DNA of 64,000 nt from a virus. Where the stretch lies: UHGV virus genome UHGV-0026213; one strand, written 5' to 3'. The translations under genes and the position numbers were made by a program. Positions 2,716-11,075 of this stretch are shown piece by piece. The notes beneath the pieces are model-generated. The model made no database searches. It saw nothing but the letters and a program-made list of their open reading frames with translations, and was not told the origin of the DNA. The first letter of the stretch is position 1. The number at the start of each line of letters is the position of its first letter.

Positions 2716-2758
2716 ATTACCCTACTCCCGAAGGAGTAGGGTAACGTTTATTTTTTTT
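2716..2758. terminator. bidirectional intrinsic terminator between convergent genes
   Basis: Hairpin ATTACCCTACTCC-CGAA-GGAGTAGGGTAAC then T-run; A-run on other side. Confidence 0.7.
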
Positions 2759-4538
2759 ACTTTGCAGCTTTGATATATTCAAAAGGATCGGTAATTGTTT
2801 CTCCTTGTCTACGTAGAAAAGCTTCTAAGACGTCGTTTTTATCGGGCAACAGGAAGAAATCTGTCGCGATTTCCATTGCATTGACACGCCCCGCAGTAAG
2901 GTTAATACCGACACGACGCCGTACCTCTTCAGGAACACCGTGAATGCTCAGTAGCTCGATTAACGTTGTTTCACGAGACTGGTTCATCATGTTCGTTGCA
3001 GATGGGTATGCCTGGGTTAAGTCAGCATCCGCAGTTTGCCCACGGAAAGCCGTGTAGAAATCATCAACTTCCTTGATGATGTTTCGTAGCCCATTCTCTG
3101 CGTTCATACACGCAGTCAATGTAACAATCCAACCATCCGTCCCAATGACTTCATTGTCGAAATCGTTACGCATCGCGCTACCCACACAACCGATAACCAG
3201 ACCCTGTTCATAGAGGTAATACGTGTATGCAATACAGATTCGCTTCGGTAGAGAAGGGAAAATATCATACATCGAATAACCCGCCAAAACTGAAATAGCA
3301 GAAGACAGATCGTTCGTCTTTTTATCCAGCAGAACAATCATCAAGTTATCGAAGATGTTATAAACGCAGTATTCTAACGGGAAATCTTTCTGCGCCTTTA
3401 AGTGCCATTCCAACTTTTCCTCGTAGGGCAGTTCTGGTAAGTCCAACTTGTTTAAACCCAACTCGGTTTCCAGTATCGCGTTAAGTTTGTAAGAGGGGCG
3501 TTGTCCCTCGTGTACACGCAATGAACGGAATAGACACATCGCATCTACACAGTAGAATGACGCCGTACAATAAAGAATGTGCCACTGTTGCGAAGGCGCT
3601 TTTGTTAATGATTTTGATTCCGTTTTCTTCGATGCTTCGTCTTTCTTAAAGTAGACACGACGGTACTGTTTTGGCACGTCAGGATGACAGAAGACGTCTT
3701 CCGGTGGAATCCCCGCAGCTTCTAAAGCTTCCAACATACGTGAAATATCGAACTCGTGGTTCCATGCGACGAGTAAGTCAGGAAGCCGAGGATGGATTTC
3801 TTCAAACATCCGTTGAATACAACAACCAGAATTGAGGCATTCGTAAACGAAGATTTTGTAACCATCAATAACGTTTTTGTATTTAACGATGGGGTTGTCG
3901 TTCTCGTCTTTTCCACGAAAAGCGATTTTAGAAAGCAATTCCTGAGCACGTTTGACGAGTCGCGCTTCAAAGTTTTCACGCCCACAACGAGTGACGTAGT
4001 CTTTCGTAGCAAAGAAATGAATTTCGTCGTCTAAAACAAAACTCATAATCCAGGGGTCTCGAGATTTGTCTTCTTCTCGAGTTTCCACGTCGTATACACA
4101 GATGCGGTTAGGTGAAACAGCATTAGGCCATTTACGTATGTACTTTTCTTTAATCCAGCTAGTAATAGGCAAATCAGCCCAGTAAACATACGGTGAAGTA
4201 CAAACCTGACGGAGTGGTTTCTTTTTATCGGGAAAACGAATCCCCAGACCCATCTGTATGGTTGAGGACATCATTACATCCGTTGTTAAATATTCCTGGC
4301 ACTTACTACGTTCTTCGTATTCTTTCTTTTCCTTGTGGTTACGATGCTGTGGTAAAGTAATGTAGATGGGCCGTTTCAGATTTTCACGCATGACAATTCG
4401 TGGGATATATCTGCCATCTTTAGTATGGACGACCTCCTTTATGAGCACGAAGTCGTTTTCTTTCTGCTGATCGGTTGCGTAAGAAACAAACTTGCACTCC
4501 TTGGCAATAACGTCTTCCGGTGCGTAATAGTTATTCAT
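2757..4538 (-). CDS. DEDDy 3'-5' exonuclease domain protein with family-B DNA polymerase-like Exo I/II/III motifs (possible exonuclease part of a split DNA polymerase)
   Basis: Motifs YDVETRE (Exo I), WNHEFD (Exo II), YNIFD (Exo III) at polB-like spacing; no polymerase motifs A/C seen; start chosen at MNNYYAPE (4538) rather than upstream ATG at 4652. Confidence 0.55.
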   Translation of the reverse strand: MNNYYAPEDVIAKECKFVSYATDQQKENDFVLIKEVVHTKDGRYIPRIVMRENLKRPIYITLPQHRNHKEKKEYEERSKCQEYLTTDVMMSSTIQMGLGIRFPDKKKPLRQVCTSPYVYWADLPITSWIKEKYIRKWPNAVSPNRICVYDVETREEDKSRDPWIMSFVLDDEIHFFATKDYVTRCGRENFEARLVKRAQELLSKIAFRGKDENDNPIVKYKNVIDGYKIFVYECLNSGCCIQRMFEEIHPRLPDLLVAWNHEFDISRMLEALEAAGIPPEDVFCHPDVPKQYRRVYFKKDEASKKTESKSLTKAPSQQWHILYCTASFYCVDAMCLFRSLRVHEGQRPSYKLNAILETELGLNKLDLPELPYEEKLEWHLKAQKDFPLEYCVYNIFDNLMIVLLDKKTNDLSSAISVLAGYSMYDIFPSLPKRICIAYTYYLYEQGLVIGCVGSAMRNDFDNEVIGTDGWIVTLTACMNAENGLRNIIKEVDDFYTAFRGQTADADLTQAYPSATNMMNQSRETTLIELLSIHGVPEEVRRRVGINLTAGRVNAMEIATDFFLLPDKNDVLEAFLRRQGETITDPFEYIKAAK

Positions 4539-4609
4539 GATTTCACTCTCAAATCTAGCGGCTGCTATACTGATTTGTGGGTAATGTAATTTCTCAAAAG
4601 GAAACACAA

Positions 4610-5944
4610 ATGGGATATTGGCAAAATCACATTGCATCAGTTGCGGATGCAAAGGTTGTAGCCGCAGAATCGATTAAATTCCAAGACAAAAAGAAGCTGG
4701 CAGAATTGGCTGATGTTATTGCTAAGTTTCGTGGTGCAGGCGATTTCAGTCCTGCAGGCTACGAAAGTGCCGGGGTTTCGGATTGGGTATTTAAGAATAT
4801 CGGCATTACGATTCACTTTAAGAACGGTAGCGAATTGGGTCTTGTTGACGTTGCTTTTGCAGGCGTGGAACCACCGAAATTGGATGCAAACAGTCCAATC
4901 ATTGCATCGATGACTCGCGCACTGTACGCAGGTAACAAAGACCTGGATATGTACAGTAAGTTCATCAAAGAAAACGAACTGAACACATCAATCGATGACA
5001 GCAGTGCAAAAATCAGTGGCGATTTAAGCAAAGTGGGTTCTCCGCTTTATCTTACCCCGGTGCTGCTGGAAAAATTAAATCTGACCGATCTGGAAATCGC
5101 CTCGGTGATTCTTCATGAAGTCGGCCACATCTATTATTATTTCCGTACGCTAATGCGTACCGTGGTGACTGATTTGCTGACAGATGCTGCGGCTAACCGC
5201 ATCATGGAAACAGAAGACCAAACTGTCCGCTTGCGCATTGTTAAAGACGTAGAGAAGATGCTGAACACGAAAGTGAATCAGCCGGAAACGATTTGTACCG
5301 AGTACAAAAAAGAAAACGTCTACATGCACTTAGTCACGCAGTTGTTATTAGATCGCCCGTTCATTAGCGGTAGTCAAGGCTTTGCTAACAGAACGTGGGA
5401 ACGTGCTGCGGATGATTTTGCTTCCCGTTTCGGAGGCGCTCCTTATCTGGCTTCTGCACTGTATAAAATGGAAACCAGTTCGTTCTATTTGCTGCGGAAC
5501 TCAGCGTATATGAACATGGGTGTCCATTTGACGGTAGAACTTTTCCGCGTGACTGCGCTGATAGTCTCTTCTACGATTCCAATTATTCCAGTGATTTCCG
5601 TGACGTTCGGAATGATCTTAAATGACCCGGATAACACCATTTACGATCCGCCGCAGCAGCGTTTTGAGGCAATGCGACGTACACTCGTTGAAGAACTCAA
5701 TACGATTAAAGACAAAAATACGAAAGCGGCTAACGAGCAACGTAAACGTATTTTAGATGGTATTGCGGTTATCGACAAGTTATTAGAAACCGTAAAAGAT
5801 AAAGATAACTTGTACCAGTTTATCTGGAATACTTTAACGCCGAAGGGTCGTCGCTCACGTGCTGCTGTTGATTATCAGCGTGCGATTGGGAAGTATATGT
5901 CGAACGATCTTCGTATTGCTTCAGCCATGTTTAATGTCGAATAA
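4610..5944 (+). CDS. putative zinc metallopeptidase-like protein (HEVGH motif) with hydrophobic C-terminal segment
   Basis: HExxH motif ILHEVGHIYY; hydrophobic stretch VTALIVSSTIPIIPVISVTFGMIL; start at MGYWQ after RBS-like GGAAACA. Confidence 0.45.
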   Translation: MGYWQNHIASVADAKVVAAESIKFQDKKKLAELADVIAKFRGAGDFSPAGYESAGVSDWVFKNIGITIHFKNGSELGLVDVAFAGVEPPKLDANSPIIASMTRALYAGNKDLDMYSKFIKENELNTSIDDSSAKISGDLSKVGSPLYLTPVLLEKLNLTDLEIASVILHEVGHIYYYFRTLMRTVVTDLLTDAAANRIMETEDQTVRLRIVKDVEKMLNTKVNQPETICTEYKKENVYMHLVTQLLLDRPFISGSQGFANRTWERAADDFASRFGGAPYLASALYKMETSSFYLLRNSAYMNMGVHLTVELFRVTALIVSSTIPIIPVISVTFGMILNDPDNTIYDPPQQRFEAMRRTLVEELNTIKDKNTKAANEQRKRILDGIAVIDKLLETVKDKDNLYQFIWNTLTPKGRRSRAAVDYQRAIGKYMSNDLRIASAMFNVE

Positions 5945-5958
5945 GTAAAGGTAAAATC

Positions 5959-6402
5959 ATGACGCATAAAGTTTCTTTAAATTCCCTGGTTCTGGACTTT
6001 AAACGTACGAACGAGGGTAAAGGTGTACAGGCACAACGCGCACTGACTGGCCTGGTCGCATTCGCATTGGCTTATAATACCGATATGCCCGATAATGGCC
6101 CGTTTGGGTCGAATGAAGTGTCGCAGCTAAAACTCCGTCCACTGATGAAAAATGTTGTTTCGGACGTAAACGAGCTTTATTGTGTCGATCTGGGCAGTAT
6201 TGAAGATTTGACAGTGGCACTGTTTTGTAACCGCTACGATAGCGCTTGGGGCGGCCGTCGCGCTATTGAAAACTTCTCTGTCCGTGAGATTTTCAATGAA
6301 GCCTTGGGCGACGATGTATGGGATACCGTTAATCTGTGGCTGGAACGTTTCATGGAAACGGTGAAATTCTATATGGAAGAAACGCGAGGCGAGCTGGTAT
6401 GA
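5959..6402 (+). CDS. hypothetical protein
   Basis: 147-codon ORF; stop overlaps start of next gene (ATGA). Confidence 0.5.
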   Translation: MTHKVSLNSLVLDFKRTNEGKGVQAQRALTGLVAFALAYNTDMPDNGPFGSNEVSQLKLRPLMKNVVSDVNELYCVDLGSIEDLTVALFCNRYDSAWGGRRAIENFSVREIFNEALGDDVWDTVNLWLERFMETVKFYMEETRGELV

Positions 6403-8069
6403 GTATGGAGATGACAGCAAACATTGCGCAACCGCAGTGGAAACTCGATGAACTTCCTGCACTGTTAGAACAGCGCATGGAGGAACGCATCGATTCTGTT
6501 AGCCAACTCAATCTCTACATGCAACGTAATGAAGCAGACCTGATTTACGGTTCTCGCCTTATCGCGCAAATTGAAGCGATCTTACGGGAAATACGTAATG
6601 CAGGGCTGAACCGTGATGTTGCTGTAGCGACTGAATCGTTGCGTCCTGGCACAATCCCGAAGGCGGTACAAAGTGTCCTGACGTCGAATTATTCCAAAAC
6701 ACACCAGAAAGAAACGGTGGTGGCATTAGAGTCTTACGCTAATTTTGGTAAGATTAGCCTTATCGTGATGGTGATGATGGGGATAATGAAAATCCTCAGT
6801 TGGATTATCAGCAACGCCGTTCCTTTTGCGGGTGCTGCGAATATTGACGGGAACGACTATCGCGAGAAACTGGAAGAGAAGTTGGCCGATGTTCCTTTCA
6901 CAGAGCGCCTGAAAACAACCGTACTGAAAGAAGTTTATCTGGTACTGTCAAAAGGTTTGAAAGACAGCGAGTTAAGCAACCTGGAGTTATCTCTTTCGCT
7001 GGCTGACGACGTTTTCGTGAACATGGAAGCTGAAGAGTTTCTAAATAAACTCGCCGCTGCGTTAGGTAAATCACCGTTTATCGATACGTTTAAGAACCAT
7101 CTTAAACGTCGGCAGAATGAGTTGCAGGTTATTCAGGATCTGCTCGATACGCTGCTTCGGACGAATATCGGCTACGGTGTATTTGACTTCGGGGTTGCTG
7201 AGGAAGTCTATAACGGTTTGCCGCCTGATGTGAAACGTGCTGGAGTGAACATTCCGTCAGATATTCAGTTCAACTTAATGAGCACGCTTCTTGACAGTTT
7301 TGCCGGTGCGCTTCAGGACTTAGACCAGTCGCTGAAAGACATCAAAACGTATTACCTGTCGAATAATCCGAAGGTAGGCACATCGCAAGAGAACCAAGTC
7401 GCCGCTGTGCATCTGGTTCGTGCGTTAGGCGAGATCAATGGCCGAATTGAATATACTGCCACGGAATTTGGACGACAGAAAGGTAGTCCTGGTCCAATTT
7501 TGCGTGTAAAAGACAAGGTTGAGCTTCTCGGTTATACCACACGTGAATTAGACAACGGTTGGATGATTGCATCAATCGGTGCTAACTCTTTCTTTGGCTC
7601 CACAACAAACCTGGAGATGATGCGCCAGGAGTTGAGCTTAAGTAACGGGGATTACCGTGAGCTGTTGGCATGTCTGATTACACTGGCACGTAGTGGTATC
7701 TCGGATGGCGTAGCGAATACTGCGCTAGACAAGTATAAGGTGTTGGAGAAACGTGTCGATCAGGTTGTAAAAACCTTGAAAGAGATGGCACGCCAATCAC
7801 GTTCTGGCGTCGACAGTCAGAAATGGCAGGCGATGGAACAGGCGTTTAAAGACCAAGTGACGCGAGGGGAGAACTTTAACCTTCACGGTCGTGAACTGAC
7901 CACGATGATGGTGTTAAACCCTGACCGTAATGTCTGGGATTCTGTTGCGCACAGTGCAAACATGATTAACATGTGGTGCAAGGCCGCAGGGTCTATGGCA
8001 ACGGTGTTGAAGCGTGCCAAGTCCAACCCACTTGTGAAAGGTGGGAAGTTCAATAAATTGATTGATTAA
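6399..8069 (+). CDS. hypothetical membrane-associated protein
   Basis: ATGA-coupled start; predicted TM segment ISLIVMVMMGIMKILSWIISNAV; followed by hairpin terminator at 8075. Confidence 0.5.
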   Translation: MSMEMTANIAQPQWKLDELPALLEQRMEERIDSVSQLNLYMQRNEADLIYGSRLIAQIEAILREIRNAGLNRDVAVATESLRPGTIPKAVQSVLTSNYSKTHQKETVVALESYANFGKISLIVMVMMGIMKILSWIISNAVPFAGAANIDGNDYREKLEEKLADVPFTERLKTTVLKEVYLVLSKGLKDSELSNLELSLSLADDVFVNMEAEEFLNKLAAALGKSPFIDTFKNHLKRRQNELQVIQDLLDTLLRTNIGYGVFDFGVAEEVYNGLPPDVKRAGVNIPSDIQFNLMSTLLDSFAGALQDLDQSLKDIKTYYLSNNPKVGTSQENQVAAVHLVRALGEINGRIEYTATEFGRQKGSPGPILRVKDKVELLGYTTRELDNGWMIASIGANSFFGSTTNLEMMRQELSLSNGDYRELLACLITLARSGISDGVANTALDKYKVLEKRVDQVVKTLKEMARQSRSGVDSQKWQAMEQAFKDQVTRGENFNLHGRELTTMMVLNPDRNVWDSVAHSANMINMWCKAAGSMATVLKRAKSNPLVKGGKFNKLID

Positions 8070-8074
8070 AAAAG

Positions 8075-8120
8075 ATTACCCTACTCCCGAAGGAGTAGGG
8101 TAACTTTTATTATTTTTTTC
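8075..8120. terminator. bidirectional intrinsic terminator, same hairpin sequence as at 2716
   Basis: Identical 30-nt hairpin flanked by A-run and T-run between convergent genes. Confidence 0.7.
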
Positions 8121-11075
8121 TTAATCGGCGGTAGTATCGTGACGGTTATAGACAATAACGATATCGTCTTTAAGTCCGATGTCGCCGCTGGCCTCAATGT
8201 CCAGCTTTTTACCTATAGTTGCTCTTGATGCTTCCGAAACAACGGTAAAGAGACGCATGTCTTTATCTGGTCCCATAGCATCGAGTTCAACACCGATAAT
8301 AGACGCATCGAGGGTTTCACTCAACGCATTACCGATTTCTGTTGCAGAGATTGTTAGATGACTACCCAAGTAATCATTGATAACCTGAGACGTTTTCTTA
8401 CGAATCTGCGTTAAGAGCTCGGTGTTATTACGGTTAGCAGCTGTTAGGTAATAACGCACGGTGAACTGGTTTTCCGCAGGGACAGGTGTTACTACCCCGT
8501 CCTCGGTACGGGCGTCGATATACCCCATTGTTGTAATCGGCACAAAGTAACCTTCGGTACGTTCTAACAACATAGGTTTCAAAGTTGGAAGTATTACCGT
8601 AACGTAGTTAACGATGTTTTCGATAACCTCGTTCAGATACGATTTTGCAGAAGGCGTCGTCGCGAATTTATATCGCGCATCGAATACCGCCATCTCACTA
8701 CGGAATTTGATAGAACGCGATTTCGCAATTTTCGGATTGCCGAATTCGTCTTTAACTAAGTCTCCTTCACGATGTAGGACGATCTGTTGTCCAGCCTCGT
8801 CAAGTTTAGGATCACCTTTACGATGCTCGTACGTAATCTGAAGTGGTGGCGTGCGACCTGCGTCGTAGGTGTAGATTGGTACACCGTTCTCATCGCGTTT
8901 AACCACATCGATTTCCCACGTTGCCATCACGTCTTTTTCGTAATACTGGTAGTTAATGCTGTCAGTAACAGCACGCGCTTTACGCCAGTAGTACGTCATT
9001 GCTTTACCCAATTCGATTTTGAAAATCTCGTGAGTAATACCAATAGCATCGCGTGACGGGGCAGTGATTAACGCATCCATTTCCGCACGTTCGTAATTAC
9101 CAGGATAATAACCGGTGCAGCCGTAGAACAGGTTGAAGTCCGTCATCAGCGGTACAGGCGTTTCCGTGGGTGTGCTACTACTAATGCGTGTATTCGTTAG
9201 CATTAATTCGTCGTTACGGTCAACGTCTAGGTTGGTTTCCAGCAGGAATTCCCAAACGCGTTCGCTACCCTGTTTACCGACTAACGTACCGTTGATGTAC
9301 GCTAAAGTGTTGTCTGCGTTACGTGGACGGAACGATAGCTGTGCAAAAACTTGATCGTCGGTCAGTGCTTGATAAGGTGCCTCTGACTTCGTTACGGTAC
9401 GCAATACATAACCGGCTTCGGTCTTTTCGATAGTGTAGTCGGCTGTTACCACACTGAGTTCCGTGCTTACGTTGGTGGCAATAAAGCGTTTGGAGTTTAA
9501 CGTCGGTTTATCTAATTGATAAATACGAACGTCAATGGCTTTGTTGTTGATATCCACAACGTAATGGAATGGTGTAAAGAGATAACGATTAGCGTTGGCC
9601 GCATTAATCAAATCTTCTTTACGCATGGTTTTTGCTAAGACCGTCATTTCCGCATCAACCGTCAAGCTGGTGTCGGTGAACCGATAAAGTGTGTCAGGAA
9701 GAATCGTCAGGCGATTACCGTTAACCTTTACCGTCGGTAGATTAACCAATTCATTCCAGGAGAAATAGAACGGTGCTGTGATCGTCCCGATGGGAGAACT
9801 GACATTGGGAATTGTCGATTCGAGCATCGGTGCCGTTAAGAAGTATGTACGGCTAGTAACATAGTCGTTTGGTTTCGACAACGTTAGACCGTAGTCAGAA
9901 ACCGTTGCTTCTAATTGTTTCTCCGTTACAGGGAGTTTTCGTGCACCCACAGCGTTATTGACTACACGTGTACGCAAATCTTCGAACGTGAGCTGGCTAC
10001 GACCACCTGACAACATTTTACCTGCTTTTGCAGCCATCTGTTTGATGGAAAAACTCTTAATCGGGTTCACGTAGTTTTCGTCGTATTCACCGTTCAAATC
10101 ACGCAATGTAAACGTGTATTCGTCAGACGGATAAGCCGAGATATCGACACTTAAAGGCCCTAAGGTCGTGTAGATATCCATACGAATTTCGCCGCTGACC
10201 AAATTCTTCGCCATGTAGATCGAGGGGATAGTACACCGTATAACGCCGTCACCGACCTGGATTAACGCGGTTGGGGTGTTGGGGTCGTAAACGTCACGAC
10301 TGTGCGTATGCTGAATTTCAACCCACTTGTTATCGTTGGTTGATTTCATCCACACCCTTACGTAGAAAAATTTGTTAGTGTAATGGCGGGTCATGACAAA
10401 GGTATTTTTCCCCGCAACGGTATCACTTTCGTTCTTCACCGCATACTGCATAACTGGGATATGGATTGCCAGTAGTTGCGAGGCCGTGGTGTTAGACGAT
10501 GTCAATTCCCAATCCAGCGCATTCGTCGACACAGGAGAAATAGGTGACTGTGTTTCGGTAATCCAAAGAACCTGAAATGCCGGGTTTTCATTGGTGCCGT
10601 AAGGAAGTACCCTGATTTCAATCGGGTACTGGATGGCAAAGGTGTAACCTGACACCGTGAAAACTGTGTCTCGTGGGATAACAACTTTACGCACACCCGC
10701 AATCTGTAAAGGGTACGCCTTGGAGATTAAACTATCAACATCGATTAATAACAACAGCTCGGTGGTTGAAGGTTGGGCGAACACATCAACGTAGTCCACA
10801 TCGGACATATGTCGGAACAGGTCATCGTACGTTTGCGCCATCGATGGAAATGTCTTTGGCACTGATTCCTGCAACCCCATAAGCGTTGCATGGCCCAACA
10901 TTGTCCCCATTTCCGCCAAATAAACAACAGGGTCTGTTGGGTCACGTAGCACTATTTGGCCTTCGGCGTCTTCTACATCCAGAAGCTGATTCAAGAGCAG
11001 TGTTTGCATCGCTGCCGGATGGTGGGCAAACAACAATATGTTCTTTGCCAAAGTATCGTAAGTCGTAGAACTCAT
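8121..11075 (-). CDS. hypothetical large protein (984 aa), possibly virion structural
   Basis: Long minus-strand ORF; TGATG coupling with upstream minus-strand gene. Confidence 0.5.
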   Translation of the reverse strand: MSSTTYDTLAKNILLFAHHPAAMQTLLLNQLLDVEDAEGQIVLRDPTDPVVYLAEMGTMLGHATLMGLQESVPKTFPSMAQTYDDLFRHMSDVDYVDVFAQPSTTELLLLIDVDSLISKAYPLQIAGVRKVVIPRDTVFTVSGYTFAIQYPIEIRVLPYGTNENPAFQVLWITETQSPISPVSTNALDWELTSSNTTASQLLAIHIPVMQYAVKNESDTVAGKNTFVMTRHYTNKFFYVRVWMKSTNDNKWVEIQHTHSRDVYDPNTPTALIQVGDGVIRCTIPSIYMAKNLVSGEIRMDIYTTLGPLSVDISAYPSDEYTFTLRDLNGEYDENYVNPIKSFSIKQMAAKAGKMLSGGRSQLTFEDLRTRVVNNAVGARKLPVTEKQLEATVSDYGLTLSKPNDYVTSRTYFLTAPMLESTIPNVSSPIGTITAPFYFSWNELVNLPTVKVNGNRLTILPDTLYRFTDTSLTVDAEMTVLAKTMRKEDLINAANANRYLFTPFHYVVDINNKAIDVRIYQLDKPTLNSKRFIATNVSTELSVVTADYTIEKTEAGYVLRTVTKSEAPYQALTDDQVFAQLSFRPRNADNTLAYINGTLVGKQGSERVWEFLLETNLDVDRNDELMLTNTRISSSTPTETPVPLMTDFNLFYGCTGYYPGNYERAEMDALITAPSRDAIGITHEIFKIELGKAMTYYWRKARAVTDSINYQYYEKDVMATWEIDVVKRDENGVPIYTYDAGRTPPLQITYEHRKGDPKLDEAGQQIVLHREGDLVKDEFGNPKIAKSRSIKFRSEMAVFDARYKFATTPSAKSYLNEVIENIVNYVTVILPTLKPMLLERTEGYFVPITTMGYIDARTEDGVVTPVPAENQFTVRYYLTAANRNNTELLTQIRKKTSQVINDYLGSHLTISATEIGNALSETLDASIIGVELDAMGPDKDMRLFTVVSEASRATIGKKLDIEASGDIGLKDDIVIVYNRHDTTAD

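Follow-up and report, generated by a model that had tools for sequence, protein, structure and literature searches.

The window analyzed here is a 64,000-nucleotide (nt) stretch of the virus genome UHGV-0026213. Positions 4610 to 8069 hold three consecutive open reading frames (ORFs) on the plus strand, which a first-pass annotation made from the letters alone had described as a metallopeptidase gene heading two unknown genes, the last of them coding for a membrane protein. We find that the stretch comes from an SPN3US-like chimallivirus (a phiKZ-type nucleus-forming jumbo phage) and that the three genes form a late head-protein operon, ordinary and conserved; for the window itself, this is mainly an annotation result. 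The first gene, ORF1, encodes a predicted divergent M48-type zinc metalloprotease whose orthologues are packaged in the phage head. The three genes and their main elements are as follows.

4610-5944, plus strand: ORF1, 444 amino acids (aa), ATG behind AAGGAAA, TAA stop at 5942-5944; predicted head-packaged, divergent M48-like zinc metalloprotease
4610-4669, plus strand: predicted N-terminal propeptide of ORF1, 20 residues, ending in AAE-20, a prohead-protease A-x-E motif
5114-5128, plus strand: HEVGH, ORF1 residues 169-173, holding two predicted zinc-ligand histidines and the predicted catalytic glutamate, on the long active-site helix 160-199
5387-5416, plus strand: NRTWERAADD, M48-type E-x-x-A-D motif of ORF1, whose glutamate E264 (91 residues downstream of H173) is predicted to provide the third zinc ligand
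5516-5620, plus strand: hydrophobic hairpin of ORF1, residues 303-337, modeled as helices 303-320 and 326-337
5959-6402, plus strand: ORF2, 147 aa, ATG at 5959; orthologue of SPN3US gp46 (head), probably in the Goslar gp66/phiKZ gp85-like family
6399-8069, plus strand: ORF3, 556 aa; orthologue of SPN3US gp47, in the position of phiKZ gp86 and Goslar gp65 and profile-linked to both
6399-6731, plus strand: predicted propeptide of ORF3, residues 1-111, with motifs ATE-79 and ALE-111; the best-conserved part of the protein
6750-6821, plus strand: hydrophobic helix of ORF3, about residues 118-141, GKISLIVMVMMGIMKILSWIISNA; Kyte-Doolittle mean 2.31; start of the mature protein

ORF1 belongs to a core chimallivirus family

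By homology and position, ORF1 is the orthologue of SPN3US gp45, phiKZ gp84 and Goslar gp67, that is, Chimalliviridae core gene cg22, one of 72 conserved Chimalliviridae genes (PMC10299810 supplement). The protein shares 70.6% identity with SPN3US gp45 over 99% of its length (tblastn) and matches PHROG 2767 with an E-value of 3.5e-150, and iterative profile searches (jackhmmer) started from it reach phiKZ gp84 at 3e-73 and Goslar gp67 at 2e-113. At E ≤ 1e-3, the family comprises 1953 cluster representatives. ORF1 also stands where cg22 is expected, divergent from a DNA polymerase fragment gene and upstream of gp85-like and gp86-like genes. Length, genomic position, the A-x-E site at residue 20, the catalytic motifs and the hydrophobic hairpin are common to ORF1 and to gp45, gp84 and gp67, from which it does not differ in any substantive way; ORF1 is simply another member.

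In the searchable literature, these proteins are called only "virion structural" or "head" proteins and a protease function of gp45, gp84 or gp67 is not discussed; literature searches on PHIKZ084, on M48/HtpX proteases of jumbo phages and on what JukA targets brought up no functional study of the protein, and the supplement of an antisense-oligomer screen lists PHIKZ084 only as RNA-seq counts. Some GenBank records do label relatives of ORF1 as M48. The annotation of Serratia phage Moabite reads "M48 family", with an HHPred match to 3CQB_A (protease htpX) at 98 probability and a BLAST match of e-16 to phiKZ084, while some automated annotations of ORF1 homologues read "beta-barrel assembly-enhancing protease". 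Genetic evidence comes from phiKZ, where orf84 received zero disruptive transposon insertions in 1242 bp at a genome-wide density of one per 42 bp (10.1101/2025.11.23.690004). The downstream orf85-86 are also insertion-free, yet they can be deleted (10.1101/2025.11.23.690004), and polarity onto orf85-86 is therefore a poor explanation of the orf84 result. The lack of insertions in orf85-86 themselves was put down to polar effects by the authors (10.1101/2025.11.23.690004), but no essential gene follows them in that orientation.

The catalytic core of ORF1 is predicted to be M48-like

The HEVGH zinc-binding signature that had been singled out in ORF1 is genuine and is strictly kept. Among 126-138 full-length relatives, which share only 20-30% identity with the window protein, the invariant positions are E20, G137, H169, E170, G172, H173, E264, D268 and R351. 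An E..[AS]D motif follows HExxH at M48-like spacing in 144 of 148 relatives, most commonly at 91 residues, the distance between H173 and E264 in ORF1. The Pfam model Peptidase_M48 (PF01435) aligns to residues 143-287, spanning both motif regions, with a sub-threshold score of 17.6 bits (cut-off, 20.3); four of eight diverse homologues also give a sub-threshold match (best E-value, 5e-4), and the best relatives score 18.5-19.1 bits. The NCBIfam HtpX model gives 12.9 bits against a threshold of 422. With a peptidase-family profile match, albeit a sub-threshold one, and a predicted third zinc ligand at a suitable distance (some 60-90 residues would be expected in M48), the M48-like reading put forward from the letters alone is strengthened. 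Its ImmA/IrrE-like alternative has lost ground: there is no M78/ImmA match in Pfam, NCBIfam or PHROGs, there is no partner repressor, and the orthologues are virion proteins.

Profile comparisons with cellular M48 proteases point in the same direction. A profile of eight diverse family members aligns its HExxH block to human ZMPSTE24, pairing "ltpaEaaaiiLHEvGH" with "CKNEEVLAVLGHELGHW" (HELGH), and its glutamate-motif block, pairing "RswEqlADqFAsRlG" with "RRFEFQADAFAKKLG" ("RRFEFQADAFA"). The ZMPSTE24 glutamate paired with E264 is E415, the third zinc ligand of that enzyme. Using hhalign, the 126-sequence profile matched Escherichia coli HtpX with a probability of 83.5% over the active-site helix (HEISH). 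An AlphaFold model of ORF1 built on the 126-sequence alignment (mean per-residue confidence [pLDDT] of 90.6, predicted template modeling score [pTM] of 0.91) consists of a small β-sheet, the long HEVGH helix, the helix bearing E264, a hydrophobic helical hairpin and a helical C-terminal domain. Foldseek ranked Ste24p and ZMPSTE24 at the top for this model, albeit weakly (E-value of 0.3). A first model, made with 18 close homologues, had a pLDDT of 63.6 and gave meaningless Foldseek matches to MukF and 14-3-3; it was replaced by the 126-sequence run.

The core of ORF1 is thus predicted to be a divergent M48-type zincin with a complete and invariant catalytic set, in which H169 and H173 would be zinc ligands, E170 the general base and E264 the third ligand. 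We conclude from these conserved residues that the core is M48-like and under strong selection for a predicted catalytic activity. Like Ste24/ZMPSTE24, HtpX, Oma1 and BepA/LoiP/YcaL, ORF1 combines HExxH with a downstream glutamate in E-x-x-A-D, has, in its model, a β-sheet preceding the active-site helix and finds its closest structural neighbors, at the weak Foldseek score given above, among M48 proteases; hydrophobic membrane-type segments near the catalytic core are a further likeness to HtpX, Ste24 and Oma1. Unlike those enzymes, it falls below the Pfam gathering score, with about 16-19% identity over only 128-172 aligned residues. Its spacer of 91 residues between H173 and E264 is longer, it has extra N-terminal and C-terminal helical domains and lacks a multipass membrane chamber, and its family carries a capsid-type propeptide and is packaged in virions. 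We know of no cellular M48 protease with a capsid-type propeptide and virion packaging. Taken as a whole, additional domains included, the protein represents a subfamily of its own and stays below the curated Pfam threshold.

The hydrophobic segment that had been placed at the C terminus of ORF1 exists as the stretch at residues 303-337, and it is internal, with about 105 helical residues following it in the model. Its maximum 19-residue Kyte-Doolittle mean is 1.96. Across the family, the hydropathy of the hairpin is kept and its sequence is not: the family-mean Kyte-Doolittle value is 1.2-2.1 over residues 303-342, and 82 of 88 members have a hydrophobic segment of at least 1.6.

ORF1 orthologues are processed and packaged in the head

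SPN3US gp45 is a head protein that is built into the prohead (PMC5694885), where the serine prohead protease gp245 cuts it at ASE-20 and removes a propeptide of 20 residues (PMC5694885 Table 1). The corresponding AAE-20 of ORF1 is the predicted end of an equivalent propeptide; E20 is invariant or 99% conserved in the family, and a low-confidence linker lies at residues 14-17 of the model. According to the SPN3US authors, no SPN3US propeptide other than that of gp45 is as short as a T4 capsid-targeting sequence (PMC5694885). Tailless SPN3US particles place gp45, gp46 and gp47 all in the head (PMC10052503 supplement), and the database record of phiKZ gp84 carries the note "structural head protein."

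Spectral counts per mass in SPN3US were 2.99 for gp45, 2.17 for gp47 and 1.29 for the 12-copy portal (PMC5694885). In purified Goslar virions, gp067 was estimated at ~48 copies (range, 32-76) and no substructure was assigned to it, on a scale where the 55-copy vertex protein gp065 reads ~76 and the portal ~16 (10.64898/2026.04.21.720040, Table S4). Orthologues of ORF1 are present at about 30-50 copies per virion. Neither gp84 nor gp67 is among the proteins modeled in the phiKZ and Goslar capsid reconstructions (PMC11297242; 10.64898/2026.04.21.720040), and the ordered shell of the capsid does not include members of this family.

Two known systems offer partial parallels. The T4 internal proteins (IPI-III and Alt), an analogy to gp45 drawn by the SPN3US authors themselves, similarly have a short N-terminal propeptide that is removed by the prohead protease and are packaged in the head. 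They bear no sequence or fold relationship to ORF1, however, and are not proteases, and ejection of gp45 is only inferred. Vaccinia virus G1 is a virion-associated zinc metalloprotease that exists beside a separate main maturation protease. Both are features that it would share with ORF1. It differs as the enzyme of a eukaryotic virus and as a member of family M44, whose HxxEH motif is inverted, and it has neither a membrane hairpin nor any homology to ORF1.

ORF2 and ORF3 are probable members of a capsid vertex complex

ORF2 and ORF3 can be assigned as the gp85-like and gp86-like head-protein partners of ORF1, judging from profile searches and gene position, and are not the unknown genes they had been taken for: their SPN3US orthologues, gp46 and gp47, are head proteins, and profiles link both to vertex-binding proteins of Goslar and phiKZ. 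Of the translational coupling proposed for both, the ATGA overlap of ORF2 and ORF3 at 6399-6402 is confirmed, while ORF1 and ORF2 are separated by 14 nt. The start of ORF3 coincides with the mass-spectrometry-verified start of SPN3US gp47 (PMC5694885). ORF2 matches PHROG 8529 (E-value of 1e-77); ORF3 matches PHROG 8131 (2e-144) and is 41% identical to SPN3US gp47.

The more distant links come from jackhmmer searches over all ORFs of 88 loci, and their E-values relate to only 3129 ORFs. ORF2 recruits 65 proteins and ORF3 recruits 87, nearly all encoded, in the expected order, right after the M48-like gene. Goslar gp66 is among the proteins that the ORF2 search recovers (9e-22), and searching back with gp66 returns the identical 65-member set with ORF2 at 7e-35. 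The ORF3 search recovers Goslar gp65 at 4e-9, and a profile seeded with gp65 collects ORF3 (6.5e-10), SPN3US gp47 (4e-13) and phiKZ gp86 (4e-8). A member of the ORF3 family occupies the same position in 81 of the 88 loci, and this positional consistency is a stronger argument for both assignments than the E-values are. The match of ORF2 to phiKZ gp85 is weak (E-value of only 0.005 in a small database), as is that of the family member Xoo-sp14_3 to PF25615 (E-value of 0.013).

Other searches drew blanks. Pfam gave no match to ORF2 or ORF3, the PhiKZ_gp85 (PF25615) and PhiKZ_gp86 (PF25617) models included, and phmmer found nothing for either among PDB sequences. BLASTP likewise found nothing between ORF2 and phiKZ gp85 or between ORF3 and phiKZ gp86, Goslar gp65 or the positional equivalent BONAISHI ORF98; the SPN3US authors also reported no pairwise similarity for gp47. 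Seeding jackhmmer with phiKZ gp85 or gp86 recruited nothing from the 88 loci. The phiKZ link therefore rests on the Goslar-seeded profile together with the structural equivalence published by the Goslar cryo-electron microscopy authors, who equate Goslar gp66/gp65 with phiKZ gp85/gp86, a vertex-binding complex under the capsid vertices (10.64898/2026.04.21.720040). The gp85-like protein is the dimeric core of this complex, of which there are five per nonportal vertex, and phiKZ gp86 and Goslar gp65 lie on the inner capsid surface at the vertices (PMC11297242; 10.64898/2026.04.21.720040). In sum, ORF2 and ORF3 resemble the phiKZ and Goslar pairs in position and size, the Goslar pair being joined to them by reciprocal profile searches, and differ in the lack of pairwise similarity and of a Pfam match.

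ORF3 also shares with phiKZ gp86 and Goslar gp65 a long propeptide, a cleavage site and a following helix. SPN3US gp47 is an essential, proteolytically processed head protein that is cut at AVE-79, with maturation expected at ALE-111 (PMC5694885). In the alignment of the ORF3 family, E79, L110, E111 and S112 are invariant, and the SPN3US-like clade conserves both cleavage motifs, ATE-79 and ALE-111. Virions of the 47(am1) mutant look normal and are noninfectious, from which the SPN3US authors inferred that gp47 is ejected (PMC5694885); the phiKZ equivalents orf85-86, in contrast, are deletable. ORF3 is less conserved than its neighbor (41% identity to gp47, compared to ~70% between ORF1 and gp45), and its mature part evolves fast.

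The helix at the start of mature ORF3, which the first-pass annotation had taken for a transmembrane helix, is indeed strongly hydrophobic. It is transmembrane-grade in 71 of 86 family members and amphipathic in phiKZ gp86 and Moabite, the ORF3 helix being far more hydrophobic than that of gp86. Whether this makes ORF3 a membrane protein is doubtful, as its counterpart in alignments with gp65 and gp86 is the first helix beyond their cleavage site, and cryo-electron microscopy puts both of these proteins on the inner capsid surface. It may be buried in a capsid complex, insert into a membrane after release, or both. The region common to ORF3, gp65 and gp86 (about 140-200 aligned residues) comprises the propeptide end, the cleavage site and the next ~140 residues. 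We also observed weak matches to PF12699 (phiKZ internal head proteins) in the N-terminal part of phiKZ gp86 (L002 7677-8942) and of Moabite gp106 (L004 8765-9979). A module of propeptide and first helix may, on these alignments, be common to the vertex-binding and inner-body protein families.

Natural fusions suggest a link between the protease and the gp86-like protein

Four metagenomic proteins combine an N-terminal region matching the ORF3 profile with a complete M48-like domain in a single ORF. One of these, P0078, was confirmed on its own contig, where gp85-like and gp86-like genes lie downstream of the fusion.

P0078, locus L089, 2846-6466: 1206 aa; ORF3-profile independent E-value (iE) of 6e-16 at residues 376-517; M48-like domain at 783-1194
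P0152: ORF3-profile iE of 1.9e-13
P0081: ORF3-profile iE of 3e-7
P0123: ORF3-profile iE of 9e-5

In the IMG/VR loci L025 (5661-6968) and L027 (5727-6992), a gp86-like paralogue sits directly upstream of the protease gene, in the usual place of the polymerase fragment. Fusions, synteny and similar copy numbers together suggest that the M48-like and gp86-like proteins work or are stored together. A further candidate, a 941-aa "fusion" ORF in locus L042, proved to be a stop-free antisense reading of the polymerase gene and was discarded.

Flanking genes and genome type

The gene order of the locus identifies each gene with its SPN3US counterpart. The flanking features are as follows.

Upstream, minus strand: DNA polymerase fragment gene, orthologue of SPN3US gp44
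4539-4609, no strand: 71-nt divergent intergenic region between the polymerase-fragment gene and ORF1, with the ORF1 ribosome-binding site AAGGAAA and presumably promoter(s)
Plus strand, in order: ORF1, ORF2 and ORF3, by gene order SPN3US gp45, gp46 and gp47
8076-8103, no strand: perfect terminator hairpin, 12-13-bp stem and 4-nt loop with T-runs on both strands; bidirectional intrinsic terminator between the convergent ORF3 and 8121-11075
8121-11075, minus strand: convergent gene, 984 aa, orthologue of SPN3US gp48 and phiKZ gp87; tail/baseplate

The same order recurs in phiKZ (gp83 to gp87), Goslar (gp68 to gp63), Moabite, RAY, BONAISHI and Xoo-sp14, and it is also kept in 80 IMG/VR loci fetched with the ORF1 family. 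In all 88 loci, a DNA polymerase gene on the minus strand is followed on the plus strand by the M48-like gene, a gene of ~150 aa and a variable gene, and then by a gp87-like gene on the minus strand. The polymerase-fragment ORF was listed at 2757-4652 on the minus strand with a TTG start that would overlap ORF1; because the SPN3US gp44 orthologue has 594 aa, its real start is probably the ATG at 4538 (M39 of the listed ORF). A sigma-70-like match at 4542-4571 and other sigma-70 promoter matches in the region are at chance level. They are also uninformative because chimallivirus-type phages transcribe with their own RNA polymerases. The bidirectional terminator described at the end of the unit is present as the hairpin at 8076-8103. 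It parts a head operon from a tail operon, since SPN3US gp48 was assigned to the tail by proteomics of tailless particles (PMC10052503 supplement) and the Moabite homologue of the convergent gene is annotated as a T4 gp7-like baseplate wedge protein.

At the protein level, ORF1 matched 221 phage records, and among the matches listed all are jumbo phages of ~197-307 kb, the best being SPN3US-like Salmonella and Erwinia phages at 70-73% identity. At the nucleotide level, the window has no similarity to GenBank phages beyond one 50-nt stretch in Cronobacter phage CR5. This match (window 4414-4463, 92% identity) lies inside the 5' part of the polymerase-fragment gene, and the CR5 record has no annotated feature beneath it. 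Near-identical copies of ORF1 (98%) occur in IMG/VR contigs of ~225 kb and also in Salmonella isolate assemblies. Clusters P0001 and P0181 (loci L008 and L009), with hundreds of members, hold proteins 91-97% identical to ORF1 and ORF3, and part of their members are annotated as Salmonella enterica isolate assemblies, on contigs of up to ~225 kb. Either a carrier state or contamination may explain the presence of a lytic-type jumbo phage in sequenced cultures of Salmonella.

Possible roles of the packaged protease

We favor, with a probability of roughly 0.6 for the explanation as a whole, a head operon whose first gene encodes a packaged M48-type protease with an injected role early in infection. 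Inside the capsid, the protease would be kept in a latent state, probably together with the gp86-like protein or close to it, and at infection it would be expelled with the DNA. Its hairpin would insert into the inner-membrane-derived early-infection (EPI) vesicle or into the inner membrane, and the protease, thus sited, could cleave host or co-injected phage proteins. To the part of this explanation that has the protease expelled with the DNA and acting through its hairpin at the inner membrane or EPI vesicle, we would give somewhat less than an even chance. It is suggested because the hairpin is conserved in hydropathy only, because the propeptide of gp45 is short and of the targeting type, because the protein is absent from ordered capsid density, and because chimalliviruses inject head proteins en masse into a membrane vesicle. 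Several points weigh against this explanation. Zinc binding, proteolysis, ejection and membrane insertion are predicted only, for every member of the family. Each of the 14 cleavages mapped in the SPN3US head conforms to the A-x-E specificity of gp245, a serine protease, and therefore no footprint of a second protease is seen. The two helices of the ORF1 hairpin are short (18 and 12 residues), and the first contains H, E and R, so that the hairpin may be buried in the protein instead of anchoring it in a membrane. A role inside the capsid would account just as well for the synteny with vertex-binding proteins and for the fusions to them.

Such a role, the main rival to the one we favor, would make the protein a second, M48-like maturation protease or a scavenger of propeptide fragments in the prohead, docked at the vertex complex via its hairpin and the gp86-like helix and never acting in the host. 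Nearly all loci encode it together with the gp85-like and gp86-like genes, the four natural fusions and the adjacent upstream paralogues of L025 and L027 join it to the latter, and its abundance is near that of the gp86-like protein (2.99 for gp45 compared to 2.17 for gp47 in SPN3US; ~48 for gp067 compared to ~76 for gp065 in Goslar). Moreover, unassigned density adjoins gp65 in the Goslar map, and gp45 enters the prohead ahead of the DNA. We nonetheless consider confinement to the capsid doubtful, given that the 14 mapped sites all obey the gp245 rule, that conservation in hydropathy only is more often a mark of hairpins that contact lipid than of those that form a specific interface with a protein, and that the protein is unresolved in both icosahedral reconstructions. 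A different use of the hydrophobic segments, conserved in both ORF1 and ORF3, would be as a tether that anchors the nascent prohead to the inner membrane, with the protease releasing or remodeling the contact. Proheads of chimalliviruses and of T4 do assemble at the inner membrane, but both segments persist in the mature virion proteins, as the cleavage sites are N-terminal to them, and such a tether seems improbable.

It is slightly more improbable still that ORF1 is a noncatalytic structural head protein that merely retains a zincin-like fold, even though gp45 and gp84 figure throughout the published work as structural head proteins and no more, and the Pfam M48 score is sub-threshold. Apart from the cleavage-site glutamate, the invariant residues across at least 126 sequences at 20-30% identity are only the catalytic and zinc-binding residues and a few neighbors, and this confinement of invariance to the catalytic set makes a purely structural role unlikely. 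Hardly credible is an ImmA/IrrE-like (M78) regulatory or antidefense protease with a repressor or an immune protein as its cytoplasmic target: it shares the HExxH motif only, its profiles find no match in the three databases searched, no helix-turn-helix partner gene is adjacent and the neighbors encode virion proteins, the orthologues are head-packaged, and both the motif context and the predicted fold appear M48-like. Returning to the injected protease, an extended version of it can be imagined in which the enzyme and the hydrophobic-helix gp86-like protein are stored at the vertices and are both released and inserted into the inner membrane. Cleavage of host envelope or co-injected proteins could then shape the formation, stability or opening of the EPI vesicle, or the evasion of sensors of injected proteins such as JukA. 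We regard this version as distinctly doubtful.

Implications for chimallivirus biology

That the ORF1 family is a conserved head or virion protein is already known, and its likeness to M48 has been noticed by database annotators. Three features appear unaddressed in the searchable literature: that the catalytic set is strictly invariant, that the hairpin is conserved and that fusions and synteny link the family to vertex-binding proteins. Published accounts name as open questions how chimalliviruses build the membrane vesicle that receives the genome and which of the injected proteins are active in it (PMC13282480; 10.64898/2026.04.21.720040). The ORF1 family is a concrete candidate for this early stage of infection, being a core gene, insertion-intolerant in phiKZ as orf84 and present in tens of copies per virion, with an invariant predicted metalloprotease site and a hydrophobic hairpin. 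It offers a lead of moderate interest, and one open to direct test, on the early-infection biology of phages that form a nucleus; if its role were purely within the capsid, it would reveal a second proteolytic activity in the maturation of giant-phage heads.

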